Below, piece after piece: positions 25,466 to 54,231 of a DNA stretch of 64,000 bases. The DNA comes from Beijerinckiaceae bacterium (GTDB lineage: Bacteria; Pseudomonadota; Alphaproteobacteria; Rhizobiales; Beijerinckiaceae). The DNA is taken from positions 12,161-76,160 of the forward strand of contig JALOTF010000003.1 in assembly GCA_025458025.1 (NCBI GenBank). The letters are read 5' to 3'. Each line of letters opens with the position of its first letter. The stretch's first letter is position 1. The translations under genes were made by a program, and so were the position numbers. Below the pieces are notes generated by a model, which was not told where the DNA came from, made no database searches, and saw nothing but the letters and a program-made list of their open reading frames with translations.

Positions 25466-25469
25466 GGAA

Positions 25470-26249: not shown

Positions 26250-26456
26250 TCAGCTCAGACGCTTGGTCGCGATCACCCGGAAGATAGTGGATGCCACGAA
26301 GCTGCCAGCGGCAACCACCTCGAGCAGGCGATCTGTCAACACGCTCTGGTCCAGTCCAACAGTCTGGAACCCCATGACTGATAGGGCCAGAGAGCCCAAG
26401 CCTACCACATTCGCCCACACGGTGCGGCTCTGCAAAAGCGCCTTGGAATCGAACAT
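26250..26456 (-). CDS. Putative holin-like protein from an internal in-frame start
   Basis: GAGGAG Shine-Dalgarno 6 nt before the in-frame ATG at 26456; 68 aa with two TM segments and a basic C-terminus (ATKRLS). Confidence 0.55.
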   Translation of the reverse strand: MFDSKALLQSRTVWANVVGLGSLALSVMGFQTVGLDQSVLTDRLLEVVAAGSFVASTIFRVIATKRLS

Positions 26457-31431: not shown

Positions 31432-31440
31432 GGTGAAACC

Positions 31441-32325: not shown

Positions 32326-32328
32326 GGC

Positions 32329-32970: not shown

Positions 32971-32980
32971 CAGCCCCTCC

Positions 32981-33562
32981 TCACAATGAACGCTGGCCGC
33001 GCGCCACAGCGCGGGCGAGGCTCGCGCTGACCTGCGCCTCGGATCGGCGGAAGCTCTCGGCATCGGGCGTGGTGATGTTCATCACAATGCGCACCGGGCC
33101 GCCTGCACCGGCCCCGGTTGCCACGCCCAGCCGTCCATCCGGGCCGCGCGAGAGCGGCAAGATCGCTTCCGCCCCTCGCTCGCCGGCTATGCCGAGGCCA
33201 CGCCCCATGGGGAAATAATGCGGGGTCGAGACCACCCCGCCCTCCGCGAAGAAGCTCGTGGGGCCGCCGCCACCACCCAGGCCTCCCAAGCCGCCGAACC
33301 CGCTGAACAGGCCCGAGAACATCGAGCCAAGGCTGTTCTCCAGCGGCTTGAACGCTGCCTTGAGCGCGATCTCGAGGAAGCGCTGCCCGATGTTCCTCAG
33401 GATGTCGTCGAAGCCCTTGCCCTGCACGATACCGCTGGCGAGAGCGCGGGAAAGCGAGCGGCCGAATTGCGCGGTCACGGCATCCAGCACGCGCATCTGG
33501 CGCGTCAGACCCGTGACGGCCCCCGATACATCGAGGCCAATATCGGTTTCCTCATCCAGCAT
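32981..33562 (-). CDS. GTA tail tape measure protein (g11-like, short)
   Basis: FAEGGVVSTPHYFPM, GIAGERGAEAILPL and TPDAESFRRSEAQ; 193 aa. Confidence 0.9.
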   Translation of the reverse strand: MLDEETDIGLDVSGAVTGLTRQMRVLDAVTAQFGRSLSRALASGIVQGKGFDDILRNIGQRFLEIALKAAFKPLENSLGSMFSGLFSGFGGLGGLGGGGGPTSFFAEGGVVSTPHYFPMGRGLGIAGERGAEAILPLSRGPDGRLGVATGAGAGGPVRIVMNITTPDAESFRRSEAQVSASLARAVARGQRSL

Positions 33563-33740
33563 GGGCGTTGGTCCTCTCATCGGGGAAAAGGCGCATCAGC
33601 GCGTGAAATGTCTCGCCATCCGGTGCATCCGGAAGGCCTGTCTCGCCCCGCAGGCCACGAAGAGCGGCAGCGAGTTCCGGCATCGTCATGGCCCAGAAGG
33701 CGTCAGGCGAAAGCCGCAGCAGGCCGAACCCCAGCGCCAT
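33552..33740 (-). CDS. GTA small tail assembly chaperone (g10.1-like)
   Basis: LRLSPDAFWAMTMPELAAA motif; the reading frame stays open upstream through AFPWGEA. Confidence 0.75.
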   Translation of the reverse strand: MALGFGLLRLSPDAFWAMTMPELAAALRGLRGETGLPDAPDGETFHALMRLFPDERTNAHAG

Positions 33741-33787
33741 GGCCTCCCCCCACGGGAAGGCGCGCGCCGGGGTTGGCTTCCGGCCTG

Positions 33788-34123
33788 CTACGGCACGCGA
33801 GGGCGGGATGGCGCCTCTCCCTCGAAGGAGAGCGCGAAAAGCTCAGACAAGGCCTCCACTGCGCGCGGTAGATCCGCCGCGCTGATGCGGCTGGCGATCT
33901 CCTCATCGGCCAGCCTCGCGCCGCCCCCGCGGATCGCCGCGCCCAGCAGGGCCACGAGATCGCGCGCTGCGATCCGCCCGCCGGCGAAACGCTCGCCGAG
34001 CCCCTGGAGATCGCCCGCGCCGAGCGCGGCCTCGATCTCCGCCAGGGCCTGCAAGGTCAGGCGCAAAGCGAAATGCTCCGTGCCCAGCGTCAGGCTCACC
34101 TCGCCCCTGTGACGGTTGGTCAT
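33788..34123 (-). CDS. GTA tail tube assembly chaperone (g10-like)
   Basis: MTNRHRGEVSL, LTLQALAEIEAALG and DLVALLGAAIRGGG. Confidence 0.9.
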   Translation of the reverse strand: MTNRHRGEVSLTLGTEHFALRLTLQALAEIEAALGAGDLQGLGERFAGGRIAARDLVALLGAAIRGGGARLADEEIASRISAADLPRAVEALSELFALSFEGEAPSRPRVP

Positions 34124-34131
34124 GGCCAGCC

Positions 34132-34542
34132 TCAGAGCGCGGTGAAGGTGAGCGCACCTGCGCTCTCCATCGCCATCTCGAAGGTCATCTCGGCGGCGTG
34201 TTCCCCGCGATAATCGAGGCTGGTGATCTGGAACGGCCCGGTGATCTCGCCGAAATCCGGCAGCACAATCTTCCAGTTGCGGATCGCGCCATCGAAAAAC
34301 ACCTGCCGCACCAATTCATCCGAGGCGCCATCCTTGAAGATGCCGGAGCCGGAAATCGAGGCCCGGCGCACGCCGGCGCCATCGAGCAATTCGCGCCAGC
34401 GCCCGGCGGATTCCGAATGGGTCACGTCCACCGTCTCGGCGTTGAGCGAGAAGCGTCGCGTGCGCAGGCCCGCCACGGTCACGAATGCACTTGTCGCATC
34501 CGCGAGCTTCAACAGAATGTCCTTGCCGCGTTGGGCTGCCAT
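34132..34542 (-). CDS. GTA major tail tube protein (TP901-1 family, g9-like)
   Basis: MAAQRGKDILLK, VAGLRTRRFSLNAETVDVT, SGSGIFKD and GPFQITSLDYRG. Confidence 0.94.
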   Translation of the reverse strand: MAAQRGKDILLKLADATSAFVTVAGLRTRRFSLNAETVDVTHSESAGRWRELLDGAGVRRASISGSGIFKDGASDELVRQVFFDGAIRNWKIVLPDFGEITGPFQITSLDYRGEHAAEMTFEMAMESAGALTFTAL

Positions 34543-34562
34543 GGGGCTCTCCTTCGGGAGGG

Positions 34563-34973
34563 TCAGAGGATGTGGAGAAAGGCGCGCAACCGCGCCGTGG
34601 CGCGGGTCAGCGCCTTCGCTTCGTCGTGCCGCACGAGCGTCTCGCGGATGAGGATCAGCGAGAGCTGGTGATCGGCCACCGAGAGTGGGGCCGAAGCCAT
34701 CGCCGCCTGCACCGCATGCAAAATCGCGAGCGCCCCGGCTGTACCGCGCTCGCGCGTGAAAGCCACGAGATCGAGATCGACGATCACGCCGTCTCCCTCG
34801 TTGGTGCCGTTCTCGCGCAACTGCGCATCGCCCAGCAGCAGGAAGGGCGGCTCGGCGCCCCGTGGCGGCGCATCATGCACGGCCGTACCGATCAGGGCTG
34901 TCAGCGCGCTGTTGGTGATGAGGCGTGTGCGCAAAGCCGCTTTCAGGGCATGAACCGGGTGGATCGTGGTCAT
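34563..34973 (-). CDS. GTA tail terminator DUF3168 (g8-like)
   Basis: LTALIGTAVHDAPP, PFLLLGD; position between head closure and tail tube genes. Confidence 0.85.
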   Translation of the reverse strand: MTTIHPVHALKAALRTRLITNSALTALIGTAVHDAPPRGAEPPFLLLGDAQLRENGTNEGDGVIVDLDLVAFTRERGTAGALAILHAVQAAMASAPLSVADHQLSLILIRETLVRHDEAKALTRATARLRAFLHIL

Positions 34974-35305
34974 GGCGTTACCTCGCGCACGAGGCAGATG
35001 ATCTGCTTGCGCCTGCCGTCAGGATCGAACACCGCCGTGATTTCCAGCACGCGACTGCCGAGGCGAAAGCGATGCCGCGCGTCGATACCCTCGCGGAAGG
35101 GCAGCGTCACGCGGCCGATGCGCGGGCCGATGGCCTGCCCGCCCTCTTCCGTTTCGCGGCCGCCATTCATCTCGACCGCACCCCACAGGGTGGCGACATT
35201 CTGCCAACCGAGAGTGGCGCCCCCGAGCGGCGTCGCGGTTTCCGCGAGCGTCTCCAGTGCGAGGTGGTTCCGGCGATGGCCGATGGAGGTCGGGGCCTTG
35301 CTCAT
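34970..35305 (-). CDS. GTA head closure / head-tail joining protein (g7-like)
   Basis: WQNVATLWGAVE, RFRLGSRVLEITAVFDPDGRR; coupled to both neighbours. Confidence 0.85.
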   Translation of the reverse strand: MSKAPTSIGHRRNHLALETLAETATPLGGATLGWQNVATLWGAVEMNGGRETEEGGQAIGPRIGRVTLPFREGIDARHRFRLGSRVLEITAVFDPDGRRKQIICLVREVTP

Positions 35306-35880
35306 GCCGAGAGCCCTCCGAGCCGCAAGCGGCGGAAAGGCTTCAGCAGCGCGCGCACCGGTGCCGGCAAGCCACGCTCGACAATCGTGGCATCGCCGCG
35401 ATTGTCATACCAGAACGCGATGAGCTGCCGCATCGCGAGGCGCAGGGGGTCGGGCACCTGATTGGCGAATTCCCCGAAGCCAAGGCGCAGATCGATCTCG
35501 ATGCCCGCGCGCAGCCGCCCCGGCGCGGGTCGCGTATTGGGGCGAATGGCATCGCGCTCCACCCCCTTGATGATCTCGAAATCGCCGGCCGGGATCGCCT
35601 GCGGCGAGCCATTGGCGGCGAAGACCCGCCCGCCCGTCACAGCGAGCACGCGACCGATGGGCACGGGGATCGTCTCGCAAGCCGGCCAGGAATCGCCCAC
35701 GATCCGCCAGTTCTGCGCGAGCAGCACGAGGCCGATCTCGCTTTCCACCATCAACCGGGCCGCGATGATCAGCGCCTGGATGAGGCTGTCCTCATCGCTG
35801 CCCTCCACGCGGAGCCAGCCCTTGGCCTCGGCGAGGCTCACGGGCTCGAGCTGCGGCCCGTCCACCAGTAGCGGGATCAT
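35302..35880 (-). CDS. GTA head-tail adaptor (gp6-like, g6-like)
   Basis: EPVSLAEAKGWLRV, AGIEIDLRLGFG and VPDPLRLAMRQLIAFWYDNRG. Confidence 0.9.
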   Translation of the reverse strand: MIPLLVDGPQLEPVSLAEAKGWLRVEGSDEDSLIQALIIAARLMVESEIGLVLLAQNWRIVGDSWPACETIPVPIGRVLAVTGGRVFAANGSPQAIPAGDFEIIKGVERDAIRPNTRPAPGRLRAGIEIDLRLGFGEFANQVPDPLRLAMRQLIAFWYDNRGDATIVERGLPAPVRALLKPFRRLRLGGLSA

Positions 35881-35907
35881 GGGTCAGTGCCTTTCTGTCG
35901 CAGAAGA

Positions 35908-35953
35908 GCACCGCGCCGGGCCATCGGCCTTGCGCGGCAGGGAGGCGCGGTGC
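35908..35953 (-). terminator. Long hairpin between capsid-region and tail genes (candidate internal terminator)
   Basis: Perfect 10-bp arms GCACCGCGCC / GGCGCGGTGC; followed by UCUUCU on the minus-strand transcript. Confidence 0.4.
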
Positions 35954-35966
35954 AAAGGTCCGCGCC

Positions 35967-36767
35967 GTGGAACTCATTCGAAAAACTGGCCGCGTCGCGC
36001 GGCGCGCTGCATTCTTGGTTGCCGCTGTCGCCATGCTGGCCTCGCCGGCCCATGCGTTGGGCGGCGATCAATCCCGGGCCGATCCCGACCTTGCGGCGCA
36101 TGTCGTCATGGTGCTCTCGCGCGAAGGCAACCGGCATGGCGCCTGCACCGGAACGGTCATAGCGCGCGACGTGATCCTCACGGCGGCGCATTGCGTGGCG
36201 GGCAAGAAGCAGGTCGTCGTGGCCTATGCCGAGAGCGGGAGCCATGTGCTCCAGCGCGTCACCAGCCGCGCCATCCATCCTGGCTTTTCCGGCCGGGCGC
36301 GCGTCTCGCTCGATCTCGCTTTGATCCGGCTCGAATCCCCGCTGCCCGCGCGTTTCACGCCCTTGCCCTTTGACCGGGGCGAGGTGGAGCACCGCGTCGG
36401 CGCAACGCATCTCATTGCGGGTTATGGCATGCAGCGCGAGAGTGACGAATCCAGCGCCGGCACCTTGCGCAGCGCCAGCGTCGGCGTGCTGCCGCGGCTT
36501 TTCCCGCGCTTCCTGCGTCTGGGAACCTCGCCCAGCGCGGATCTCTCCGATTTTGCGATCTGCACCGGCGATTCCGGCGGGCCGGTCCTCACCTCCGGCT
36601 TTGGCGGCAAGGTGATTGTTGGCGTGGTCTATGGCCGCGAGAGCTTCGGCGATGCCCGCTCCTGCGGCACGATTGGCCAGGCGGTGCGCCTTGCCCCGCA
36701 GGCCGGGTGGATCGAGCAGAATCTCGCGCGCTGGTCGGGCGAGGCTCGCCCCCGCCCGACCCGCTGA
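35967..36767 (+). CDS. Secreted trypsin-like (S1) serine protease, antisense to the GTA operon
   Basis: Signal peptide (AFLVAAVAMLASPAHA); catalytic triad motifs LTAAHCV, DLALIRL and CTGDSGGP. Confidence 0.92.
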   Translation: MELIRKTGRVARRAAFLVAAVAMLASPAHALGGDQSRADPDLAAHVVMVLSREGNRHGACTGTVIARDVILTAAHCVAGKKQVVVAYAESGSHVLQRVTSRAIHPGFSGRARVSLDLALIRLESPLPARFTPLPFDRGEVEHRVGATHLIAGYGMQRESDESSAGTLRSASVGVLPRLFPRFLRLGTSPSADLSDFAICTGDSGGPVLTSGFGGKVIVGVVYGRESFGDARSCGTIGQAVRLAPQAGWIEQNLARWSGEARPRPTR

Positions 36768-36773
36768 GCCTGC

Positions 36774-38009
36774 TTACACCGAGAAGCGCAGCAGCTTGAT
36801 GGCGTCGAAATCCTGCACGCCACCGCCCACGCGCTTCGTCGTGTAGAAGATCACGTAGGGCTTGGTGGAGAACGGATCACGCATTGTGCGGATGCCGATG
36901 CGATCCACCACCACATAGCCGCGCTGGAAATCACCGAACGCAATCGAGAGGCTGTTCGCCGCGATATCCGGCATGTCCTCGGCTTCCACAACGGGGAAAT
37001 TGAGGAGCGTGGAACGCGCCCCCGCCACACTCGGCGGCTGCCAGATATAGTTGCCGGTGGTGTCCTTGATCTTGCGGATCACGCCTTGCGTCTTCCGGTT
37101 CATGACGAAGGTCCCGTTCTGGCGATAGACCGCCTTCAGGGAATGGGCGAGATCCACGAGGTTGTCCGAGGGGTTGGTGGTCGCGAAGGCACCAGCCGCC
37201 CCAGTGGCGACGAAGCCTAGATTGTTCCAACTCCAGCTCGCCTGCGCCACGGTGGGGTAGGTCAGGAATCCCTTCGGCTTGTTCGTGCCGTTGCCATTCA
37301 CGAAGGCCGTGGTCTCGGCCGCCGCGAAAGCCCGGACGATCTCGTTCGAGATCCATTCCTCGATATCCACCGCCGCATCATCGAGCATGGCCTGCGTCGC
37401 CGCCGGCTGCGTGAAGAGTTCGCCCGTGGGGAAGTCGAGCGCCACGAAGGCGCTGGCCTGCACCGCGTTGCCCGGCGCAGCATCGGCCGTCCAGCCCGAT
37501 TGCGCGCCGGTCGGCGTCACCGCCTTGCGAAGGCCGGAGCCCGAAACCGCCTGGATGCTCGCGATCGAACGGATCGGCGACAGCCCCGCGATGCGCGCAA
37601 GCACGCTCTCCTCGGCCAGCGGCGGCAGCAGGTAACCGCCATCCGGCGCGGTGAGGCTCGTCGAGGATTTCACCTCCAGCCGATGCAAAGCCTGCGTCTC
37701 GCCGGAGCGCATATAGCCTTCGAAGGCGCCCTTGTGTTCAAGCGCCGCAAGCGAGACATCATCCTCACCGAGGCCCAGAGCCGGGCGACGGCCCTTGGTT
37801 TCCAGCGTGCGGATGCGATCAAGGCAGAGGTCGATCGCGCGGTCCATGCGGGCGAGCTTCTCGACCTGGAGCGGATCGGAAGCCGCCTTGCGGTCGTCAT
37901 TCTCGCCGCGATACTCGCCAACGAGGCGGTTGAGCGTGCCAAGATCATCGGCAGGCTGGATCGCCTTGATTTCCGGAGCGGCAGCTTCCGGGTGACGCAG
38001 ATGGGTCAT
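36774..38009 (-). CDS. GTA major capsid protein (HK97 fold, g5-like)
   Basis: DGGYLLP, QAMLDDAAVDIEEWI, FVNGNGTNKPKGFL and YTTKRVGGGVQDFDAIK; RBS GAGGAC before ATG at 38009. Confidence 0.95.
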   Translation of the reverse strand: MTHLRHPEAAAPEIKAIQPADDLGTLNRLVGEYRGENDDRKAASDPLQVEKLARMDRAIDLCLDRIRTLETKGRRPALGLGEDDVSLAALEHKGAFEGYMRSGETQALHRLEVKSSTSLTAPDGGYLLPPLAEESVLARIAGLSPIRSIASIQAVSGSGLRKAVTPTGAQSGWTADAAPGNAVQASAFVALDFPTGELFTQPAATQAMLDDAAVDIEEWISNEIVRAFAAAETTAFVNGNGTNKPKGFLTYPTVAQASWSWNNLGFVATGAAGAFATTNPSDNLVDLAHSLKAVYRQNGTFVMNRKTQGVIRKIKDTTGNYIWQPPSVAGARSTLLNFPVVEAEDMPDIAANSLSIAFGDFQRGYVVVDRIGIRTMRDPFSTKPYVIFYTTKRVGGGVQDFDAIKLLRFSV

Positions 38010-38024
38010 GGTGGTCCTCATGGT

Positions 38025-38615
38025 TCAGAACTGCGCCATCCGGCGCCGGGAAGAGACGGAGGCATGCAAGCCGCCGCCGATTGAGCCCCTGCCTTCGCCG
38101 CGTGGCGCAATGCGCGCCTGCGGCAGCAGGGGAAAGCTGACGATGGAAATCTCCCAGAGATCGAGCTTCTGGAGCCGACGCAGACCCGTCGCGGGGTCGC
38201 GCGTCTCGCTCGCGGCCTTGAAGCCGATGGACAGCCCGTCGATGCTGCCGCGAGAGACCAATCGATGCAGGTCGCGCGCCTTGGGCAGATCAAGATCGAG
38301 TTTCCCAGCCACGCGCAGGCCGCGCTGGTCTTCCGCGATGTCGAGCCACTCACCCACGGGCGAGCCGGGATCGTGCTGCCAGAGCAGCTTCACGCCGAGC
38401 GCCGTGCGCTTGGCGAGGCTCGCGCGGAAGGCGCCGGGCATCACCACATCGCGCCCAAGATCCGCCACGCCGAACAAGGAGGCATAGCCCTCGAAATAGC
38501 CATCCGCATCAATTTGCGGAGGGGCACCCGCGCTCCCGCTCTTCTGAACAGGCGCGCGGGTGCTTCTTCCGGCCGGCAGGGAGGCGGACCGGCCGAAAGC
38601 GACTGAGTTCGGCAT
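38025..38615 (-). CDS. GTA prohead protease (HK97 family, g4-like)
   Basis: FEGYASLFG, LLWQHD, GLSIGF and LWEISIVSFP; RBS AAGGA. Confidence 0.93.
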   Translation of the reverse strand: MPNSVAFGRSASLPAGRSTRAPVQKSGSAGAPPQIDADGYFEGYASLFGVADLGRDVVMPGAFRASLAKRTALGVKLLWQHDPGSPVGEWLDIAEDQRGLRVAGKLDLDLPKARDLHRLVSRGSIDGLSIGFKAASETRDPATGLRRLQKLDLWEISIVSFPLLPQARIAPRGEGRGSIGGGLHASVSSRRRMAQF

Positions 38616-38631
38616 GGGCAATTCCTTGGTG

Positions 38632-38847
38632 TCAGGGTTTGCGCGCGGCATCCCGGTCGAGACGGGTGATACGCAGTTTCCGCACCGGCTCGGATTTCGT
38701 CTCGAGCTTGGGCACGGGCCGTTCCAGCCGCTCGATCAGGTCGAAGAAGCGTCGGAAGAGCCGCACCGGCTCAAAGCCGGCCGGCGAATGGATGTCCGCC
38801 GGCCGCCTGGCCCGGCGGGTCAGGTTCGGTCGTCTGAAGCGCCACAT
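38632..38847 (-). CDS. Small basic hypothetical protein in the GTA head module
   Basis: 71 aa, 17 Arg; GAGGGA RBS overlapping the end of the previous gene; fills the gap exactly, but could be a spurious GC-rich frame. Confidence 0.4.
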   Translation of the reverse strand: MWRFRRPNLTRRARRPADIHSPAGFEPVRLFRRFFDLIERLERPVPKLETKSEPVRKLRITRLDRDAARKP

Positions 38848-38853
38848 GGTTGG

Positions 38854-39051
38854 TTATCCCTCGGATGAGCCTGTTCGCTGCCGTCGATTGAAACGTGCGA
38901 TTTCACGGACAAAGGCATCGAAACGACGATGAGCCGCTGCACTTTCCCTCAGAAGATGCACGCAGGCCGCCGAGGCGGCTCCGGCCCACAGGAACAGGAC
39001 GAGATGCGCGAGATCGCCCCGCGCAATGATGCTCTCGGTGACCGCATTCAT
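38854..39051 (-). CDS. Small hypothetical protein with one hydrophobic segment (g3.5 position)
   Basis: MNAVTESIIARGDLAHLVLFLWAGAASAACVHLL...; starts 7 nt after the portal stop. Confidence 0.65.
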   Translation of the reverse strand: MNAVTESIIARGDLAHLVLFLWAGAASAACVHLLRESAAAHRRFDAFVREIARFNRRQRTGSSEG

Positions 39052-39058
39052 GGTGCCA

Positions 39059-40261
39059 TCACGGGCGGCCATTGCGCTGCGGGCGTGGCTTTGCCGCCGT
39101 GCCATAGCCGAGGGCTGCGCGCTTTTCCTCGTCGCTGAGGAAGCTCGCTTCGGCCACGCGCTTCCAGAGCGCGCTGCGATCCTCGGCGATGGCCTCGATC
39201 TGGTCGAGATCCGGCAGGATGCTGATGCGCGCGGCATAGGCCGGCTGCAGCCATTGCGCCATCGCTCCCGAAACACGCCGCACCAGCGGCACGATGGTCT
39301 GCCGCCAGAAGGCACGGTTCGCCTCCGCATAGTTCGAATAGGTGTTGTCGCCGGGCAGACCCAGCAGCAGCGGTGGCACGCCGAAAGCCAGCGCGATTTC
39401 CCGCGCCGCACCATTCCGCGCCTCCTGGAAATCCATATCCTTGGGCGTGAGCGCCAGCGGCTTCCAGTCGAGCCCGCCTTCGAGCAGGATCGGCCGACCC
39501 GCATTGCTCTGTCCTGAAAAGGCCTGTTCCAGCTCGGCTTTCAGGCGATCGAATTGCAAGTCCGTCAGGTTTTCCGGCGAGGCATAGACCAGCGCGCCGG
39601 AGGGCCTGGCAGAGTTATCCAGCAAGGCCTTGTTCCAGCGACTGGCGGATTCGTGCATCTCCAGCGGAACCTGCGCTGCCGAAAGCGGCGCATAACCCTG
39701 GTGATCATCCAGCGGATCCGCGAGCCTCAGATGAAGGATCGGCTGCAAGCCATCCGGCGCGACCGGGATCAGCGATCGGGCTGTCCCGAGGCTGTATTCA
39801 TAGCCGCGCGGCCAACCATCCGGGCCGGGCACCACCTTCACGCGATCCGGTCGCAGGGCGTGGATCTCGCGCGGCGCATCCTCGCCATCCGCGATGAGAT
39901 GCAGATAGGCATTCCCGAAGAGCAGAAGATGCGTGAACACCCCGTCAAGCAGGGCAATCCCGCTCTCGCGCGGGTTCGGCCGCTCCAGCAGGCGTTCGAG
40001 CGGGTGGTCCGCCACCTCCGCCCCTTCCACCGTCAGCGCGAGCGGCACATTGGCCGCAGCCTCGGCGATGAGCCGCACGCAGCGATGCACCACCGGGTTG
40101 CGATGAAACCCGGCGCGCACCAACGCCACGCCGCTCGCTTCACCGAACAAGCCGCGTCCGGGATGGTGAAAAGCCAGCATGGGAAAGCCCGCCTTGCGTT
40201 CGGGCGCACGGGGCTCCGGCCCCGGCTTGGCGCCGAGGAGACGGGAGAGGATCGATGTCAT
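39059..40261 (-). CDS. GTA portal protein (g3-like)
   Basis: NPVVHRCVRLIAEAAA, HLLLFGNAY, LDNSARPSGAL, AREIALAFGVPP and NTYSNYAEANRAFWR. Confidence 0.95.
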   Translation of the reverse strand: MTSILSRLLGAKPGPEPRAPERKAGFPMLAFHHPGRGLFGEASGVALVRAGFHRNPVVHRCVRLIAEAAANVPLALTVEGAEVADHPLERLLERPNPRESGIALLDGVFTHLLLFGNAYLHLIADGEDAPREIHALRPDRVKVVPGPDGWPRGYEYSLGTARSLIPVAPDGLQPILHLRLADPLDDHQGYAPLSAAQVPLEMHESASRWNKALLDNSARPSGALVYASPENLTDLQFDRLKAELEQAFSGQSNAGRPILLEGGLDWKPLALTPKDMDFQEARNGAAREIALAFGVPPLLLGLPGDNTYSNYAEANRAFWRQTIVPLVRRVSGAMAQWLQPAYAARISILPDLDQIEAIAEDRSALWKRVAEASFLSDEEKRAALGYGTAAKPRPQRNGRP

Positions 40262-40284
40262 GAAAGCCTCCGGGGGCGTAAGAT

Positions 40285-41583
40285 TCAGCTCAGCTGGCGC
40301 ACCCGAGGGGCAACGCCATCATTCTGGGAAACCAGCGCGGTGACCGCCCAGACCAGCGCATCGAGCCGGTCGGGTGATCGGCCATCCGCGAGGCCATCCG
40401 GCCCGAAGGCCGTCATTTCATCTTCCAGCGCCGGGAAAGCGCCAACGTGATGCACCCGTCCCTGTGCGTAGAAAGCCGCAACGGGCTCGGCGCGCAGGCG
40501 CTTGCCCCGCGTCGCCCGCACCGTTGTCACCGGCACGGCCTCATCCAGCGCGGAGATGACGCTGGCGACCATATCGCCGCCCTGGTTGACCTCCGCGAGC
40601 AGTTGGTCCGCCTCATGGCTGCGGAAGGCCGCGATGGCCCGTGCGGCCCAAGCCTCGGGCTTGGCGGCCTCCAGTGAGGCATCTTCCAGAACGTAGATCG
40701 CGCCATCCGCGGCGCGCCCCGCGACAACGATTCCGCAGCGTCCGCCGCGCTTGCCGCCGGCAGGCGGGTCGACGGCCACCACAATCCGTTCGAGATCGGG
40801 CGCTTCCGCCACCCTCGCCCGTTCAAAGGTCTCGCGCCGGAACAGCGCGTCGGGGTTCTCCTCGACAAAGAGCCCTTCGAGTTCCTGCCGGCCCAGAGAC
40901 GTCCCCGCATACCGATCCACCACCTGCGCGAGGAAGGCCGGCGCGAGATTGACCGCGTTGGCGCGGGTTGAAGCGCGCGTCACCGCCGCATGCGGATCAT
41001 TCGCGAGCCGTTTCAGCAGCGGGATCGGCCGCGGCGTGGTCGTGATCACCTGCCGGGGCTGGTCACCCAGACGAAGCCCGAATTGCAGCATGTCGAATGC
41101 GGCTTCCGCATAACGCCATTTCGCGAGCTCATCGCACCACGCCGCCTCGAATTGCGGACCGCGCAAGGATTCCGGATCTTCCGCCGAAAAGCCTTGCGCA
41201 ATCGCGCCGTTCGGCCATTCCAGCCGGCGACGGCTGGCATTCCATTCTGGCCGTTCATCAGGCCGATGCACCGCACGCAAGCCGGAAACGCCTTCCACCA
41301 TCACCTCGCGCAGGTCGTTCTGCGTCTCGGCAACGATGGCAATGCGCCCAACGGGCTCCGCGCTGAAGGGCGGCAGGCCCATCGCAAGGCCCCGTACCCA
41401 TTCCGCGCCGGTGCGGGTCTTGCCTGCCCCGCGCCCGCCGAGCACCAGCCAAGTGGTCCAGGGCCCGCCATCGCGCGCCTGCGCCGGCGGCAATTGGTCT
41501 TCGCGGGCGAAGAGCGTCCAGTCCGTCGCGAAGGCCTGAATGGCCTCTGGCGAGAGGCTCTCAAGCAGAACCGGCCCCTTCAT
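40285..41583 (-). CDS. GTA large terminase (g2-like)
   Basis: Walker A GGRGAGKT, Walker B AAWCDE, nuclease VVAVDPP and SPDRLDALVWA. Confidence 0.95.
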   Translation of the reverse strand: MKGPVLLESLSPEAIQAFATDWTLFAREDQLPPAQARDGGPWTTWLVLGGRGAGKTRTGAEWVRGLAMGLPPFSAEPVGRIAIVAETQNDLREVMVEGVSGLRAVHRPDERPEWNASRRRLEWPNGAIAQGFSAEDPESLRGPQFEAAWCDELAKWRYAEAAFDMLQFGLRLGDQPRQVITTTPRPIPLLKRLANDPHAAVTRASTRANAVNLAPAFLAQVVDRYAGTSLGRQELEGLFVEENPDALFRRETFERARVAEAPDLERIVVAVDPPAGGKRGGRCGIVVAGRAADGAIYVLEDASLEAAKPEAWAARAIAAFRSHEADQLLAEVNQGGDMVASVISALDEAVPVTTVRATRGKRLRAEPVAAFYAQGRVHHVGAFPALEDEMTAFGPDGLADGRSPDRLDALVWAVTALVSQNDGVAPRVRQLS

Positions 41584-41926
41584 CCTGGAGACGCAACTGC
41601 TCAAGCCTTTCCGCAAGCTCGCGACGGAATTCGGCGAGAGCGCGGGCGGGCGTCGCGAGTGAGGCATGGTTCTGTTTCTCCGCCGCCTTCGAGGCGATAG
41701 CCTCGTCGTCGATGGCCACGAGATCGCGGATGGTCCGCGCGATGATGGCGAGCGTCTTGGCGTCACGTTCCAGCGCCTGCGGGTCCTCCCGCTGGGCGGC
41801 GAGGCGGCTTTCCACCTCATCCACCTGCTTTTCCGCCGTCTGCCAGAGGCGGGAGACAATGCGCCGGCGCCGGGTGATGCCCGGTCGGCGGGTGGTGGGT
41901 GATGAAACAGGTCGATTGGCGTTCAT
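41561..41926 (-). CDS. Putative small terminase (g1 position)
   Basis: 121-aa helical protein (RDAKTLAIIARTIRDL...RRELAERL) overlapping the large terminase start by 23 nt; RBS GGGGAAG. Confidence 0.65.
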   Translation of the reverse strand: MNANRPVSSPTTRRPGITRRRRIVSRLWQTAEKQVDEVESRLAAQREDPQALERDAKTLAIIARTIRDLVAIDDEAIASKAAEKQNHASLATPARALAEFRRELAERLEQLRLQDEGAGSA

Positions 41927-42146
41927 TCGGCTTCCCCCTCGAAGAACAAATCCGTCCTGTTCCGGATCAGGAGCGAAGCGCATCGCGCCCTCGGCACGGA
42001 TGATTTCCGTGCAGAACGCGAAGCACCGCCCCGTTGCGGAAACGGGCCGGAGGACAATCATGAAAAGGTCTCGCTGGCACTCCCCGTGCCGCGCCGCTTC
42101 AGGCGTTCAGGTCACAATTCGGGAGCGTGAGGAAACACTGCCCGAT

Positions 42147-42198
42147 CACCGTGACGGTGTCAATGACTAAATTCCTACCATAGGAATATTAACCTTAA
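42147..42198 (-). promoter_or_regulatory. Candidate GTA operon promoter with two palindromic operators
   Basis: TTGACA on the minus strand (42158-42163); palindromes CACCG-N3-CGGTG (42147-42159) and ATTCCTA-N3-TAGGAAT (42171-42187); TTAACCTTAA (42189-42198). Confidence 0.55.
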
Positions 42199-47743: not shown

Positions 47744-48564
47744 TACTGCGCGATCGGAACGCCGGTGACCTGCGCCAAAGTGCGCAGGCTGGAGCCGCGC
47801 GGCTCACCCTTGGGCGGCAGGCGATTGTCCTGCTCGAAGCGCGTGAGGGCCGAGCGCGTGGTCGGGCCCCATTGGCCATCCTCGTTCAGCGGACCATAAC
47901 CCGCCTTGTTCAACGCGCGCTGAATGTCCCTCACCGTGCGGGGAGGCGTTTCATCACCCGAGGCGCGCTTCACGAGATCGAGGAGTTCATCCTTCATCGT
48001 GGCGCGCGTCGCTACGATCTCCTTTAGCAGCGTCTCGCTCGGGCGGCCATCGACCGGCACGCGCTGCGCGAACTGAAAATCGCGGATCGCCTGCGTCATG
48101 CGCGGGCCGACCTTCCCATCGGGCTCGCCCTTGAAGAAGCCGCGCTTGGCGAGCTCGCGCTGGATCTCGAAATTCAGCGCTTCGGTTGTCTCGCCGGCCT
48201 TCGCCTTATCGCCGGGTTTGACAGGCGTTGCAGGCGTGGCGGCAGGCGTTGGCGGCGTCACGGGCGCGGGTTTCGCTCCGGTCAGCGGGCGCTGCTCGAA
48301 AGCGGCCTTGGCCACATCCTGCCGCAGAGGCGGCACCGGAATCTCGTTCTTCGCCACGGGGCGGAACAGCGGCTCGGGGTGACGCTCGGTCTGGAAGGCG
48401 ACCGCATTCAGCACGATCGCGAGGCCGCCGATGGTCGCACCCACGGCGGCCAGCCGCATCGGCGTAAACAGACCACGACGCCGGCCCTTCCGCGGCGCGA
48501 CGGGCATGCGCCCTTCCTGACGTTGGCTCCCCATCTTGCGCTCCGAAGAATTCCGCTCGCTCAT
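47743..48564 (-). CDS. Membrane-anchored peptidoglycan-binding domain protein (two PG_binding_1 repeats)
   Basis: One TM segment, IQRELAKRGFF...DGKVGPRMTQAIRDFQ and IQRALNKAGYG...DGQWGPTTRSALTRFE. Confidence 0.85.
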   Translation of the reverse strand: MSERNSSERKMGSQRQEGRMPVAPRKGRRRGLFTPMRLAAVGATIGGLAIVLNAVAFQTERHPEPLFRPVAKNEIPVPPLRQDVAKAAFEQRPLTGAKPAPVTPPTPAATPATPVKPGDKAKAGETTEALNFEIQRELAKRGFFKGEPDGKVGPRMTQAIRDFQFAQRVPVDGRPSETLLKEIVATRATMKDELLDLVKRASGDETPPRTVRDIQRALNKAGYGPLNEDGQWGPTTRSALTRFEQDNRLPPKGEPRGSSLRTLAQVTGVPIAQ

Positions 48565-50228
48565 GATGCCAGCCTCCCCGGCGCGACCGGCGCCGGCTGT
48601 TCGCGACGGGATGTCGGCCGTGCGGCCGTCGCAACACCCCGGAAAGTGATGCGCCGCTGGCCATCTTCTACACGGAAGATCGCGCGGCAGGCTCCGGCAG
48701 CCGCCTGTTCCAGCGCCATCTGGAGCATGTCCTCATGCCCGCCACCAAGCGATCCACCATCGGCGCGCGCCACCACGATTCGCAGATCCGAACCGATCTG
48801 CGACACGGCGAGTTCCAGCTTCTGGCCGGGCTGATCCTGAAGGGCGGCACGCAGCAGCACGCCGATTGCGAAGCGAGCGGCATCGGCGGGCAATTCGGCC
48901 GGCGCATCGCCAGCCTCGCCCAGCACGGTCACGCGGCCCTCGCAGCCCTCGGCGGCGAGCACGAAGCGGGCGGCATCCTGTGCGAGACGCACCACATCCA
49001 CGCGCTCGCGCCGGGGAGCGGCGGGTCCGGTGAGAAGCTTCAGCCAGCGCCCCATCAAGGCGGTGTTGCGATGCGCTTCGAGCATGGCGGCGCGTGCTTC
49101 CTCCGCGTAATGGCGGTAGCTTGCGAGATCGCGCGGGGCGAGCTTCGGATCAGCGATGAGTTCGAGATAGCCGAGGCTCGCATTGAAGGGCGAAACGGCA
49201 TCGTGCATCGCGCGCTGCACGAGGGCGGGGTCTGTGGCGGTCTGCGACTCGGCCTCCGGCGCGGCGGGCACCTCGGCAGCGTCGCGGCCAAGCGCCACGA
49301 GTGCGAGGCCCGGCAAACCAAGTGCAGGCGCGACCGAGAGGTTCCGCTCCGTAAAACGACCGCCGCCAACGCTGGCATCCTGCCGCAGTCGAAGCGTGAG
49401 TTTCGGCGTGGCCTCGCCCTGATGGATGGCGCGCGAGAGCGCCTGCAACAAGGCCGGGCGATCAATCACCAGCAGGGCATCGATCACCGACGGATAGGGC
49501 CATGACGCAGCCGCCGCGAGCCAGGCGAAGCGGCTCGTTTCGAGTTCGGTTGCGAGCGTGCCAGTGGAATCGACCGCGAGCACGAGGCCATCGTGATCCG
49601 GGAACGGCGCTTCCGAGAGAACCATGCCGCGCGGCGCGGGCTCCAGCGCATCCAGCAGCGGCGAGGAAGCCGGTGCGAGTGCCAACATCGTGAGCATTGG
49701 CACGGCCATGCTGATCAGCATCAGTACCAACGGGCCGTGGCTGGCGGAGAAGATCAGCCCGGCAACCGTCGCGCCCAGACCAGCCGCAAAGACCCGCCGC
49801 GCATTGCGATTATTGCCAGCGAGAAGCAGTCGCGTGCCGAGATAATCCGCCCCGGCCATCAAACCTGCGCAGAGAATCGCGCCCGTCGGAGTCGAGAGCC
49901 CCACCACCAGAAGCACGTTGATGAGCGCCATGGGCGCGAGGAACGCGAGCGCCGGCTGCGGGCCGCGGCGCAGAAGCGCGAACCCCACGACCTGCAAGAC
50001 GAGCAGGCCGGAGAGCGCCACGAGATCACCCGCATGCCAACCCAATTCGGGCTTCAGCGGCGCGAGCACCACGAGAAGCGCGAGAAACACCACCGCCCCG
50101 AGAAGCCCCGCCATGCGTCCGGCCAAGGCAATCGACAGCGCACGCGATTCGGCGCTCTCGCTCCGCGAAGCGGCGGAGGCAAGGCGGCCATCCTGACCAA
50201 GCAACGTCTGGGTCCAGTCGATACGCAT
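48561..50228 (-). CDS. Degenerate membrane histidine kinase at the divJ position (probable pseudokinase)
   Basis: Multi-TM N-terminus, PAS-like segment (LLVIDRPALLQAL), H-box-like MHDAVSPFNASLGY, no recognisable N/G1/G2 boxes. Confidence 0.6.
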   Translation of the reverse strand: MRIDWTQTLLGQDGRLASAASRSESAESRALSIALAGRMAGLLGAVVFLALLVVLAPLKPELGWHAGDLVALSGLLVLQVVGFALLRRGPQPALAFLAPMALINVLLVVGLSTPTGAILCAGLMAGADYLGTRLLLAGNNRNARRVFAAGLGATVAGLIFSASHGPLVLMLISMAVPMLTMLALAPASSPLLDALEPAPRGMVLSEAPFPDHDGLVLAVDSTGTLATELETSRFAWLAAAASWPYPSVIDALLVIDRPALLQALSRAIHQGEATPKLTLRLRQDASVGGGRFTERNLSVAPALGLPGLALVALGRDAAEVPAAPEAESQTATDPALVQRAMHDAVSPFNASLGYLELIADPKLAPRDLASYRHYAEEARAAMLEAHRNTALMGRWLKLLTGPAAPRRERVDVVRLAQDAARFVLAAEGCEGRVTVLGEAGDAPAELPADAARFAIGVLLRAALQDQPGQKLELAVSQIGSDLRIVVARADGGSLGGGHEDMLQMALEQAAAGACRAIFRVEDGQRRITFRGVATAARPTSRREQPAPVAPGRLAS

Positions 50229-50551
50229 GGAGGCTGAGGCGAACCTTTCGTTCCGGCCGGGCAACCGGCGAGGGCATGGAAACGCCGAAGCGCTTCGTTC
50301 TCCGGACCCTCGCGCGGCGCTCCTTAAGCGGGCGTGAAACGGGAGCATCGGGCTTGCTGGAAAACCGCTCGCACACGCCGGGCGGGCCGGCTTTCGAGTC
50401 CTATGGTGAACAACAACCTTCCGGATTGGCGAGGCGTTGCGGATTCCGGAACATCTGCGGCGGGGAAGCGCGGAGATGCATCGCATTTGAATCAATTTCC
50501 GAACGGTCTTCTCAAACCCTTGCGCTATGCCCTTGAGCGGACAGGAGCGGG

Positions 50552-50899
50552 ATGATGATCACACGTCTCATGGTGGCCCTGCTGGCCCTCTACATCGTGT
50601 CGGGGGGCGGCAAGAACTGGATGAATGCCGCGCCGGGCGAGCAGACAGCGCATGCGGCTGATTCGCTGCCGGCACAGGCCTCGCTTGCGAGGCAGGCGCT
50701 CGAATTCTGCCTCAGCCATCGCGATATCTGCGCTGAAGCCGCCGGCAGCCTCGTGAAAGCCACGGGCAGCGTGCCAGCCGTTCCACCCATCCCGGCGATT
50801 CCCACCCTGCCTGCGTCGCAGCAGGCCCATGCGCCGGGCGAGGCCGCGCCGCATCTGCCGGTTCCGCCGCGCCGTCGCAACACCGCCACCGGGGCTTGA
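50552..50899 (+). CDS. DUF5330-like exported protein
   Basis: Signal/TM segment, FCLSHRDICAEA cysteine pair, proline-rich tail; upstream of sufE. Confidence 0.7.
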   Translation: MMITRLMVALLALYIVSGGGKNWMNAAPGEQTAHAADSLPAQASLARQALEFCLSHRDICAEAAGSLVKATGSVPAVPPIPAIPTLPASQQAHAPGEAAPHLPVPPRRRNTATGA

Positions 50900-50963
50900 C
50901 CCCGGGGGGCGCATCGCGCCATCTGCCGGTCGAACTCCTCCGGACCGGATACCGCGCGCAGCC

Positions 50964-51392
50964 ATGACCTTCCCCCTTCCCGCCGGCAATACGCGGCTTC
51001 AGGGCATCGTCACCGATCTCGATTTCCTCGATGATTGGGATGAGCGCTATCGCTACCTGATCGATCTCGGCCGCCGGCTCGATCCGCTGCCGAAGGAGGC
51101 CTATTCGGAGGCGAACCGCGTGCCCGGCTGCGCGAGCCAGGTGTGGCTGCTGATGAGCCGCAACGCCGATGGCTCGCTCGCGATCCGGGGCGACAGCGAC
51201 GCGCTGATCGTGAAGGGGCTCGTGGCTCTTGTGCTTGCGATGTTCGATGGCCGCCCCGTCGCCGAGGTGAATGCGATGGACGCGCAAGGCTTCTTCGCGG
51301 CCATCGGCCTCAAGGATCACCTCACCTCGCAGCGCGCGAATGGCCTCGCCTCCATGGTCGCGCGCATCAAGGCAGAGGCCGCGAAAGGCTGA
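50964..51392 (+). CDS. sufE: Fe-S cluster assembly sulfur acceptor SufE
   Basis: DWDERYRYLIDLG, VPGCASQVW, GDSDALIVKGL and LTSQRANGL. Confidence 0.94.
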   Translation: MTFPLPAGNTRLQGIVTDLDFLDDWDERYRYLIDLGRRLDPLPKEAYSEANRVPGCASQVWLLMSRNADGSLAIRGDSDALIVKGLVALVLAMFDGRPVAEVNAMDAQGFFAAIGLKDHLTSQRANGLASMVARIKAEAAKG

Positions 51393-52226
51393 TTACCCGG
51401 TTTTCGGGAAGGCGGGACGCGCATCCGCCGCTGCCCACTGGCGGATCGGCTGGCTGTCAGCCCCCTGCGCGACGCTGGACAGCCCGTAATGCCGCGCCAG
51501 CGCCCTGAGGCCCAGCGACAGCACAACCTTGCCCGAGCGCACCGGCAATCCAAGGCCCTGCTCGATCTCGCCGACGGAACGGCTGAAGCCACAGAGATCC
51601 ATCAGCGGACCGGCGAAATCCGGCCCCACGGCCAGCATCGCTTTCTGCACGCGAAGCCGCGCCTGCGCCTGCACTTCCGTCATGGTCAGGCCTGCGCCAG
51701 GGCCGGCACCATCGACCACAAGGCGATCCCAGTTGATGGTAACGCGCGGCGGCAGGCAGGCCATCTCGATATCGCGACGCAGGCGCTCGCCGGCGGCGCG
51801 CCCCGCCTCATCAAGGCCAAAGCATCCGCCTTCCTGCCGGGCGAGCATGGCGAGCGGATCTTCCCGCTGGTTGCGGCGCATCGGCGTGCCATCCTCGCCG
51901 GTCACGATCTCGATCGCGCGGTGCTGGTCGCCGAAGGCCTCCTCTCCCGTTTTCCGCCGGAAGGCCGCCGCGCGCCCCTCCGGTGTGAGTCGGAAGCGCG
52001 GCAGCCCGCCGATATTGTCGCAACGCACCGCGCCGGACGAAAGCAGCGGCGCCAAAACCGCCATGGGCAGGCGTGCGCGCACCAGGGCCACGCCCTTTTT
52101 CGGCACGATGACCTGCACGATCCCCTCTTCGCGCCGGGCATAGGCTTCAGGCTCGGCCAGGAGATCCAACAGGCGGTCCTCGTCGCGTTCCGGGCTCGAA
52201 GCCGGACGGGCCAGTGCGGGCCTCAT
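51393..52226 (-). CDS. DUF6456 protein, GafZ-like (C-terminal half of GafA)
   Basis: AAGERLRRDIE, PRVTINWD, AVGPDFAGPLMDLCGF and RSGKVVLSLGLRALARHYG; translationally coupled (ATGA) to the DnaA-HTH gene. Confidence 0.75.
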   Translation of the reverse strand: MRPALARPASSPERDEDRLLDLLAEPEAYARREEGIVQVIVPKKGVALVRARLPMAVLAPLLSSGAVRCDNIGGLPRFRLTPEGRAAAFRRKTGEEAFGDQHRAIEIVTGEDGTPMRRNQREDPLAMLARQEGGCFGLDEAGRAAGERLRRDIEMACLPPRVTINWDRLVVDGAGPGAGLTMTEVQAQARLRVQKAMLAVGPDFAGPLMDLCGFSRSVGEIEQGLGLPVRSGKVVLSLGLRALARHYGLSSVAQGADSQPIRQWAAADARPAFPKTG

Positions 52227-52678
52227 GCGCCGTCTCCCGCCAATGTGCGGGCGAAATCCTCCGCCCAGCGCGACAGGGCCGTCTCCAGCATCAGCAGCGG
52301 CTGGTCGAAGCGGGCCCGGTCGCGCAGGTCTTCCACCAGCTGGCAGGCATGGCGAACAGTCGTGCGATCCCGCCCGAACACCGCGCCAGTGCGCGTCATC
52401 GAGAGGTGGAACAGGGTATGCGTGAGGTACATGCCCATCTGCCGCGCTTCCGCGATATGCGCGGAGCAGCGCGTTCCGGCGCGCAGATCCCGCAGCGAGC
52501 AGCCTTGCCAGTTCGCAGCAACCGCCTCCGCGAGGCGCGGCCCCAGCCGCGACTGGAGATCGAGCGCGGAAACCGGGCGCGGCGTTTCAGCCTTCCTCGG
52601 GCGGCCTCGCCTCCGCCGAGGCGGTGCGACAGAGCCGAATTCCACAGCCGGATTGCATTGCTTCTGCTGCCAGACCAT
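52223..52678 (-). CDS. DnaA C-terminal HTH protein, GafY-like (N-terminal half of GafA)
   Basis: AEARQMGMYLTH and GAVFGRDRTTVRHACQLVEDLRD match the DnaA domain IV signature; RBS GGAGAA. Confidence 0.78.
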   Translation of the reverse strand: MVWQQKQCNPAVEFGSVAPPRRRRGRPRKAETPRPVSALDLQSRLGPRLAEAVAANWQGCSLRDLRAGTRCSAHIAEARQMGMYLTHTLFHLSMTRTGAVFGRDRTTVRHACQLVEDLRDRARFDQPLLMLETALSRWAEDFARTLAGDGA

Positions 52679-52924
52679 CCCGCATTCTCCCGATCGGGCC
52701 TGCGACCATCCGGGGGTGTTCTCTCCCGGACATCGATGAGGAAAGGCTACGAAGAAGCTTCCGGCGGGTAAATTACCTTAGAGCAAGTTTATAAGAAAAT
52801 ATTCATATAATCCCCGCAAATACGAGGATTAATATGATCATTTTCCTATTTTTTTGCATTGTCTTTTAGTGTTCTGCCCAAGAGGCATCTGGCGTGGGAA
52901 GCCAGCGCTCCATCGCGGGCCATA

Positions 52925-52952
52925 AAAAAGGCGCCACGGAGGGCGCCTTTTT
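52925..52952. terminator. Bidirectional Rho-independent terminator downstream of mucR
   Basis: AAAAAGGCGCC-acggag-GGCGCCTTTTT. Confidence 0.85.
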
Positions 52953-52970
52953 CGATACGGTTGCAAATGA

Positions 52971-53378
52971 TCAACGGCCGCGCTTGCGCTTCTGGCCAAG
53001 GCCCATTTCCTTCGCAAGGCGCGAACGGGCGGCCGCATAGTTCGGCGCGACCATCGGATATTCCGCCGGGAGGCCCCACTTCTCGCGATATTGCTCGGGC
53101 GACATGTTGTACTGCGTGCGCAGATGGCGCTTCAGCGACTTGAACTTCTTCCCGTCTTCCAGGCAGATGATGTAGTCCGGGAACACCGATTTCTTCGGAG
53201 AGACTGCGGGCTTGGCCGGCTCGACCACCACTTCCGCGGGAACGGTGCCGACCTTGGTCAGGGCGTTGTAGACATCATTGATCAGCGTAGGCAGATCAGC
53301 CGCCGGGACCGAATTGTTGCTGACATAGGCGGAAACGACCTCGGCCGTCAGTTCAATCAATTCGTTATTGTCCGACAT
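52971..53378 (-). CDS. mucR: Ros/MucR zinc-finger transcriptional regulator
   Basis: [31 protein letters not shown] and YPMVAPNYA. Confidence 0.96.
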
Positions 53379-53768
53379 GATTCGTCTTCCTTTCTTGTCT
53401 CTCGACCTCACGGGCGCAACCCGTGCGTGTTCGCGGCATTCCGATCGGTGCTCTGTTTGCAAATTCGCAGCAAGAGTTGCTGAAACATCAAGCATTCGGG
53501 TGAGAGCTGCCACGACAATCGCTTCGATAACGTGAATCACATACTCTCTACAGCCAGCAGATACGGCAGATTCTGCTGTCGCGCAACAAAAACAAGTTTT
53601 AACCTCACAATCGAGCGTTGATTCTGCTGATGAATTCAATCAATTTTATCAATTCAAGTGCAACTTGACGTGACCTTCAGGGTTTCATGCAACCAGGCTC
53701 TTGCCCGTTTTCAGCGTCGCATCCATCTCTGCGGCAGGGCCAATCAAGGCCGAAACAGAGGGATACTT

Positions 53769-54170
53769 ATGAAGGTCCAGCGATCGAACGCCGAATGGCG
53801 CAATCTGCTCACGCCGGAACAATACTATATCTTGCGCGAGCACGGCACGGAGCGACCGGGCACCGGCCCGCATCTTTCTGAAGACAGGCCAGGGCTTTAC
53901 CGCTGTGCAGCATGCGAGAACCCGCTATTCATCGCGGATACGAAATTCGATGCCGGGTGCGGTTGGCCTAGCTTTTTCCAGACCATCGGGCCGGATGCCG
54001 TCACCGAGATCGAGGATCGCTCCTTCGGCATGCGCCGCACGGAAATCCGCTGCGCTTCGTGCGACGGGCATCTCGGGCATGTTTTTCCCGATGGGCCTCG
54101 ACCGACCGGCCTGAGATATTGCATGAACGGCCACGCGCTCCGCTTCGAGCCGCTGGAAGACGAGGGCTGA
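53769..54170 (+). CDS. msrB: Peptide-methionine (R)-S-oxide reductase
   Basis: GTERPGTG, zinc CxxC pairs (CAAC, CASC), [18 protein letters not shown] and RYCMN. Confidence 0.95.
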
Positions 54171-54231
54171 GAGGCTCATCCGGCTCCGGGCGGGGTGCGT
54201 ATCGCCCTCGCCTGAACGGATTGAAACGCCG

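Follow-up and report, generated by a model that had tools for sequence, protein, structure and literature searches.

The control of the gene transfer agent (GTA) of Caulobacter crescentus has been described in terms of GafY (identical to HdaB, CCNA_01111), GafZ (CCNA_01112) and the repressor RogA (Gozzi et al. 2022, PMC9632790; Tran et al. 2024, PMC11150451). A survey of 759 GafZ homologues found 494 of them with an adjacent GafY, the split form being commoner than the fused one (Gozzi et al. 2022, PMC9632790). Sherlock & Fogg 2022 (PMC9638019) give the division of gafA between two genes in Hyphomicrobiales as a highlight, and their Fig. S2 presents DUF6456 'gafA' genes (22-32 kDa) of this order with a small dnaA-like gene in front, sufE downstream and mucR or another helix-turn-helix (HTH) regulator upstream. 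In published BLAST tables, Hyphomicrobiales DUF6456 proteins match the GafA C-terminus at ~1e-28 (PMC6363796). Here we analysed a 64,000-nucleotide stretch of a Beijerinckiaceae genome (hereafter the window), in which an earlier note made from the DNA letters had proposed a split GafA-type activator next to mucR, at 51393-53378. Judged by the names of close homologues, the organism stands near Rhabdaerophilaceae, within Hyphomicrobiales. The most probable reading, to which we assign a probability of roughly 0.8, is that this gene pair is a gafY-gafZ operon working in a Caulobacter-type circuit with RogA-type repression, and that mucR is an independently terminated neighbour.

The gafY-gafZ pair and its conserved neighbourhood

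The two genes lie on the reverse strand, downstream of mucR and its terminator, exactly as they had been described. The first (52223-52678) encodes a GafY-like (HdaB-like) protein of 151 aa with a DnaA-domain-IV HTH (Pfam Bac_DnaA_C, 49.1 bits versus a cut-off of 31.5), for which a PDB search returned DnaA domain IV as the closest solved structures (1.6e-7). The second (51393-52226) encodes a GafZ-like protein of 277 aa, made of an N-terminal winged-helix-like domain and a C-terminal DUF6456 domain (PF20057, 111.7 bits versus a cut-off of 26.3, residues 117-248) with a putative sigma-region-4-like HTH. The two open reading frames (ORFs) share an ATGA overlap (52223-52226), preceded by a GGGAG motif. 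DUF6456 is single-copy in the genome, its only carrier being the gafZ-like gene, and the Bac_DnaA_C matches across the genome are DnaA and the gafY-like gene only.

As references we used seven Caulobacter loci retrieved with a codon-degenerate form of the published gafY quantitative PCR primers, the proteins of strain NA1000 themselves not being among them; the exact primer pair had no match in the genome contigs scanned. These loci encode a gafY of 122 aa and a gafZ of 242 aa with an ATGA overlap as in the window. BLASTP aligned the GafY-like protein with a Caulobacter sp. GafY orthologue at 44% identity over 77 aa (E 1e-19) and the GafZ-like protein with a Caulobacter sp. GafZ orthologue (L047:1642-2370) at 37% identity over 148 aa (E 2e-19). 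For the GafZ-like protein, searching the sequences of the PDB provided no meaningful match. Its AlphaFold2 (AF2) model, with a predicted local distance difference test (pLDDT) score of 82, has two domains, winged-helix-like at the N-terminus and a four-helix bundle at the C-terminus. A Foldseek search of the PDB with this model found nothing at E<=0.001; helices 182-247 could be superposed on region 4 of SigL (3hug) with a target-length TM-score of 0.66-0.70 and a root-mean-square deviation of ~3 A, a weak match of an AF2 model (Foldseek E >0.2). The C-terminal bundle thus weakly resembles region 4 of extracytoplasmic function (ECF) sigma factors, which fits the published descriptions of GafZ and GafA and is not independent proof. 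Because the domain content, the BLASTP matches to the Caulobacter orthologues, the operon structure and the promoter elements (see below) all point in the same direction, the proposed split GafA-type identity holds: by homology, the pair is the gafY-gafZ operon of this genome, the split form of Rhodobacter GafA that is normal outside Rhodobacterales.

The presumed target of the pair is an RcGTA-type head-tail cluster on the same strand (27041-41934), recognised by Pfam matches to Terminase_6N/6C, Phage_portal, Peptidase_S78, Phage_capsid, DUF2460, gp84_N/BR0599 and GTA_TIM, and followed by a GH108 lysis-type gene (26250-27017). The gafZ-like stop codon (51393) and the first GTA gene are ~9.5 kb apart, the distance that had been indicated. 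Immediately downstream, gafZ is convergent with sufE (50964-51392, forward strand; SufE, 144 bits; predicted start codon), the stop codons of the two genes abutting.

To place this arrangement in context, we sampled 151 genomes of the order, 130 of which contain DUF6456, and compared 40 loci from ~40 families. The co-directional upstream neighbour of gafY was mucR in 27 of the 40 loci, and sufE was the convergent downstream neighbour of gafZ in ~30. DUF6456 and the GTA terminase occurred on one contig in 70 genomes; gafZ was <=30 kb from the terminase in 55 of them (median 13.1 kb), always on the terminase promoter side (55/55) and co-directional in all but four (51/55). The gafZ-terminase gap of 9.8 kb in the window is typical of these linked genomes. 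There is an order-wide synteny block consisting of mucR, gafY, gafZ, sufE, an interval of about 10-20 kb and the GTA cluster. The earlier note had regarded the grouping of structural, lysis and regulatory genes within ~41 kb as a near-complete GTA switch. Since a linkage of this kind, with gafYZ on the upstream side of the terminase and <=30 kb away, exists in 55 of the 70 genomes, this grouping is ancestral synteny and not a special assembly, and its mucR/sufE part figures already in the published neighbourhoods (PMC9638019, Fig. S2).

The neighbourhood shows some variation. Two loci from the same family as the window, L003 (G048) and L004 (G139), have mucR and then gafZ, with no detectable gafY in the spacer between them; that of G048 holds a small divergent ORF instead. 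In L017, L025, L030, L037 and L003, a small divergent gene with the motif ERRxGRAGHxxYDLNRH is found upstream of gafY where mucR is absent as neighbour, and XRE-type HTH genes occur likewise upstream of gafY in L025 and L027. The ERRxGRAGHxxYDLNRH proteins may represent another GTA-linked regulator family.

The conserved neighbourhood also bears on another possible function of the DnaA-HTH protein, namely that it is primarily an HdaB-type replication regulator, which titrates HdaA and blocks RIDA (regulatory inactivation of DnaA) on exit from stationary phase, its pairing with DUF6456 being incidental. HdaB (CCNA_01111) has been described in this way, in a study where homologues of three Alphaproteobacteria proved active in Caulobacter (PMC7049699), and the window protein has the same DnaA-domain-IV fold. 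However, the HdaB phenotypes have been recast as effects of GTA induction and GafY has been shown to bind at GTA promoters (PMC9632790). In addition, the gene studied here is translationally coupled to gafZ, precedes a GTA cluster in 55 of the 70 genomes and has a promoter element in common with the GTA operon. We consider a primary role in replication extremely improbable.

Promoter elements and a RogA orthologue

The GTA cluster promoter (42135-42198, reverse strand) is composed of a box, TTAAGGTTAATATTCCTAT (42180-42198), the element TAGGAATTTAGTCA (42164-42177), a TTGACA -35 (42158-42163), a palindrome in the 17-bp spacer, CACCGT-C-ACGGTG (42147-42159), and a weak -10, CAGTGT (42135-42140). 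Aligning what lies upstream of the GTA cluster in 33 genomes (L059-L091) revealed one promoter architecture common to ~27 families. Its consensus is a box, (A)TAGGAA-N4-NTCC, abutting the -35 TTGACA, a CAGCGTSACGCTG palindrome in the 17-bp spacer and a TAGGGT -10, with a conserved leader, CATCGTCGGAnAnTTGCGCC, downstream. The palindrome has perfect arms of at least 5 bp in 15 of 28 genomes. In the window its 6-bp arms are perfect and both are changed with respect to the order consensus; as the changes are at mirrored positions, the dyad symmetry has been kept. Experiments in Caulobacter have defined the GafZ-binding element (ZBE) as a near-perfect palindrome between the -35 and the -10 (PMC11150451). 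By its position, the window palindrome is the counterpart of this ZBE and a candidate GafZ site. Further downstream, between promoter and first gene, strong intrinsic-terminator hairpins are present in the leader of a genome of the same genus (L059, G098) and of at least 10 other families. Such leader terminators in relatives fit a control by anti-termination.

The gafY promoter lies in an AT-rich block (52770-52880, reverse strand) with 30% GC, in a genome with 64% GC, and 12 TA steps. Its minimum GC content over 120 bp, 0.308, corresponds to the genome percentile 9e-5. Only 6 islands of this length with GC <=0.30 and 16 with GC <=0.35 exist genome-wide, which places the block among the ~10 most AT-rich islands of the 3.29-Mb genome. 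It contains two candidate RogA-type operators on the reverse strand, ATAGGAAAATGATCATAT (52832-52849) and TATATGAATATTTTCTTAT (52791-52809), which make up the two arms (52826-52848 and 52792-52813) of a long inverted repeat. A palindrome ATAGGAA-N5-TTCCTAT is found upstream of gafY in ~25 families, and ATAGGAATATCTTCCTC in all seven Caulobacter gafY promoters that we retrieved. RogA binds the gafYZ core promoter of Caulobacter, which has two GGAA-N4-TTCC inverted repeats (PMC9632790). Given this match, the gafY-upstream palindrome is best read as a predicted RogA-type operator. A scan of 50500-54200 for consensus sigma-70 promoters and terminators provided nothing useful, missing even the mucR terminator described below.

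We built an operator matrix from the gafY-upstream palindromes of other genomes, the window being excluded, and scanned with it the whole 3.29-Mb genome. The best site genome-wide was that at 52791-52809 in the gafY promoter (score 21.9) and the second-best was that at 42180-42198 in the GTA promoter (21.6), versus a maximum of 19.1 in five locally shuffled genomes. When the promoter regions themselves were shuffled, the observed score was reached in 4 of 5000 cases for gafY and 1 of 5000 for the GTA promoter. The possibility that the matrix merely picks AT-rich DNA is disfavoured for both promoters by these local-composition shuffles. Three further sites scored >=20 (C21:2201, C39:25925 and C48:24074 of G000). 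These lie outside the two promoters, two of them overlap AT-rich islands, and the three may represent either further targets or noise due to composition.

A RogA-like protein of 205 aa is encoded outside the window, unlinked to gafYZ (G000:C6:40834-41448; L058 1498-2115). Searching the genome with PF00717 retrieved LexA only; the RogA-like protein was found with a protein query instead. RogA has been described as a protein of ~213 aa with an HTH and an S24-like domain devoid of catalytic residues (PMC9632790). In agreement with this, the sole S24-family protein besides LexA in three Caulobacter genomes had 214-224 aa and combined an HTH with an S24-like domain in which the catalytic Ser and Lys are missing. 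The window genome's protein is 43% identical to this putative Caulobacter RogA over its full length (E 6e-43), is its reciprocal best match and has no GDSM Ser motif. The genome, to judge from these similarities, encodes a RogA orthologue, a LexA-like pseudo-peptidase. RogA-like proteins are present in 109 of the 151 genomes of the order.

Several points weigh against a Caulobacter-type circuit with RogA-type repression at this locus. The GafY-like protein scored at best 66 bits with the NCBIfam HdaB-like (PRK06030-type) equivalogs, below their cut-off of 148; these equivalogs are narrow, so the protein is related to, yet outside, those subgroups. The Caulobacter 'RogA' that served as reference was picked by its published description and not by name or accession. 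In the gafY promoter, the boxes are degenerate, with one good half-site each (GGAA-AATG-ATCA and TGAA-TATT-TTCT), and are 110-170 bp upstream of the gafY ATG versus 20-40 bp in most relatives; moreover, the palindrome might serve as a site for GafY, in place of or in addition to RogA. In the GTA promoter, the -10 is poor, the stop codon of the upstream gene is ~35 bp from the -35, and there is no room for the far-upstream layout of Caulobacter, with its GafY-binding element (YBE) and IHF site. The leader (41926-42135) has only a weak 4-bp hairpin before TTTGTTCTT. Finally, the organism, Rhabdaerophilaceae-like, is uncultured, and both the circuit and GTA production in its lineage are predictions from genes and sequence elements.

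Some of these imperfections might be taken as signs of a conserved relic, in which genes and promoters persist in a lineage that no longer makes particles, leaving the pair without current GTA output. The weak -10 would be consistent with it, as would the operator half-sites of this genus, degenerate with respect to the order consensus, and the same-family genomes with no detectable gafY between mucR and gafZ. Nevertheless, all the structural ORFs tested are uninterrupted and have strong Pfam matches, gafY and gafZ are intact and coupled, and the spacer palindrome retains perfect 6-bp arms although both have changed. Such decay seems very unlikely to us.

MucR and other regulatory genes around the cluster

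The mucR gene (52971-53378, reverse strand) encodes a protein of 135 aa that matches ROS_MUCR (PF05443) over its full length (177.3 bits) and is the only Ros/MucR gene of the genome. It is followed by an intrinsic terminator at 52924-52952 on the same strand, AAAAAGGCGCC-CTCCGT-GGCGCCTTTTTT, with an 11-bp stem and a U-run (free energy -21.2 kcal/mol, z -3.2). The zinc ligands of Ros/MucR proteins are Cys, Cys or Asp, His and His, and zinc-independent members occur in the family. Within residues 72-90 of the window protein (53110-53165), C72, D75 and H85 are kept and Gln occupies the final His position of the zinc-site region (RTQY). The same-genus genome also has RTQY, as do three other loci of the sample, whereas RTHY is found in most relatives.

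MucR proteins are H-NS-like and prefer AT-rich DNA, and the earlier note had suggested that MucR could fill here the repressor role that RogA has in Caulobacter. Taken further, MucR and not RogA would be the main silencer of the gafYZ promoter, coating the AT-rich block at 52770-52880 and keeping the GTA off, and the adjacency of the two loci would reflect a regulatory tie. The DNA preference of the family, the absence of any other Ros/MucR gene, the 12 TA steps and exceptional AT-richness of the promoter block and the recurrence of mucR upstream of gafY (27 of 40 sampled loci, and in the published Hyphomicrobiales loci of PMC9638019, Fig. S2) are all compatible with this idea. However, mucR has its own strong terminator, and a terminator also follows mucR in 17 of 27 relatives. 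Its adjacency to gafY is one piece of a wider conserved block, to which sufE and the GTA cluster also belong, and, therefore, needs no functional explanation. The AT drop at gafY promoters is 0.20 with or without an adjacent mucR, and gafYZ of Caulobacter, which has no mucR neighbour in the retrieved loci, is repressed by RogA (PMC9632790). The RogA orthologue encoded on C6, together with the RogA-operator-like repeats at both the gafY and the GTA promoters, makes the substitution of RogA by MucR unnecessary. The suggested role of MucR thus found no support, and we regard MucR as the main silencer as distinctly unlikely. In the literature that we searched (MucR with GTA, hdaB, gafA and Brucella neighbours), we found no regulatory link between MucR and GTAs beyond the remark on synteny.

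A less demanding variant is that MucR acts as a second, H-NS-like lock, directly silencing the AT-rich gafYZ promoter on top of RogA-type repression. We deem this unlikely as well, if conceivable. If true, the mucR-gafYZ linkage would be functionally maintained and GTA release would be tied to the cell-cycle or host-interaction programme controlled by MucR.

The earlier note had also counted two DivK-pathway kinases in the region, and only one of them withstood scrutiny. The gene at 12155-14626 does encode a kinase with PAS, HisKA and HATPase domains, and a comparison with solved structures showed its core to be similar to Caulobacter DivL. In contrast, that at 48561-50495 had no Pfam match, HisKA and HATPase included, and no PDB match; it is a 644-aa membrane ORF with an H-box-like motif, and its product has the appearance of a degenerate kinase. 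At 12021-12036, ~120 bp upstream of the DivL-like kinase gene, there is a perfect CtrA box (TTAA-N7-TTAAC). A search allowing up to one mismatch found no CtrA box in either the gafY promoter or the GTA promoter. The GTA lysis gene is directly followed by genes for an OmpR-type response regulator (25470-26222) and a HAMP histidine kinase (24062-25519), a pair that looks like an ordinary two-component system rather than CtrA.

Proposed circuit and comparison with known systems

The analysis shows homology, coupled genes, synteny, promoter elements that are conserved and a RogA orthologue encoded in the genome; from these, and by analogy with Caulobacter, we infer binding, activation, anti-termination, repression and particle production. 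In the simplest wiring, RogA would repress gafYZ, and GafYZ would activate the GTA operon and prevent termination within it. The off-state would most likely be held by the RogA-type repressor encoded at G000:C6:40834-41448 through the GGAA-N4-TTCC-like repeats in the gafY promoter; the same protein would probably also bind beside the -35 of the GTA promoter, unlike in Caulobacter. The GafY-like protein, as in Caulobacter, would activate its own promoter and that of the GTA cluster through sigma-70. The GafZ-like protein would load at the palindrome at 42147-42159, between the -35 and the -10 of the GTA promoter, and RNA polymerase would then read through the ~15-kb structural operon.

As the pair, its split form and the mucR/sufE neighbourhood are already in the literature for Hyphomicrobiales, and are ordinary for the order, their discovery here is of little value. 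The promoter and operator consensus and the conserved linkage of activator and cluster over 6-30 kb, on the other hand, are not stated in the literature that we examined. The order-wide GTA promoter consensus, the RogA-type boxes upstream of gafY in ~25 families and the gafYZ linkage suggest that the RogA-GafYZ circuit of Caulobacter extends to Rhizobiales-type bacteria, where RogA control may possibly act directly on the structural promoter. The consensus elements also represent concrete sites to mutate in tractable species.

Among the systems with which this locus can be compared are the anti-terminators lambda Q and Pseudomonas AlpA, with which it shares an element embedded in the promoter, between the -35 and the -10, and a factor thought to load there onto RNA polymerase (Tran et al. 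2024, PMC11150451); this is a likeness in mode of action only, not family membership. GafA of Rhodobacter capsulatus (rcc01865; Fogg 2019, PMC6363796) has, by its description, the same N-terminal DnaA-like and C-terminal DUF6456/sigma-like modules and is a direct GTA activator, the role that we predict for the window pair. It differs in being a single 42-kDa polypeptide, with a central region that contacts the omega subunit of RNA polymerase, whereas the modules are encoded by separate genes in the window. The split gafA loci of Hyphomicrobiales, as depicted in Fig. S2 of PMC9638019, have exactly the arrangement of the window, with no difference in kind; that paper does not propose MucR as a regulator, and we did not find the promoter elements or the 6-30 kb GTA linkage described there.

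The window activator is ~10 kb upstream of the structural operon, whereas that of Caulobacter is far away from its own. Here, mucR is the upstream neighbour and the gafY promoter is unusually AT-rich, and the GTA promoter has no space for a far-upstream YBE and IHF site. A RogA-type box abuts the GTA -35 in the window, whereas RogA chromatin immunoprecipitation in Caulobacter detected only two peaks, at the gafYZ promoter and presumably at CCNA_02002, which has the same repeats in its promoter. Despite these differences, both systems have the same ATGA-overlapping two-gene split, in which the gene for a DnaA-domain-IV HTH protein precedes that for a DUF6456 protein, a palindrome between the -35 and the -10 of the GTA promoter, and a RogA or RogA orthologue encoded elsewhere in the genome; to the GGAA-N4-TTCC repeats in the gafY promoter of Caulobacter correspond, in the window, degenerate candidate boxes of this type.

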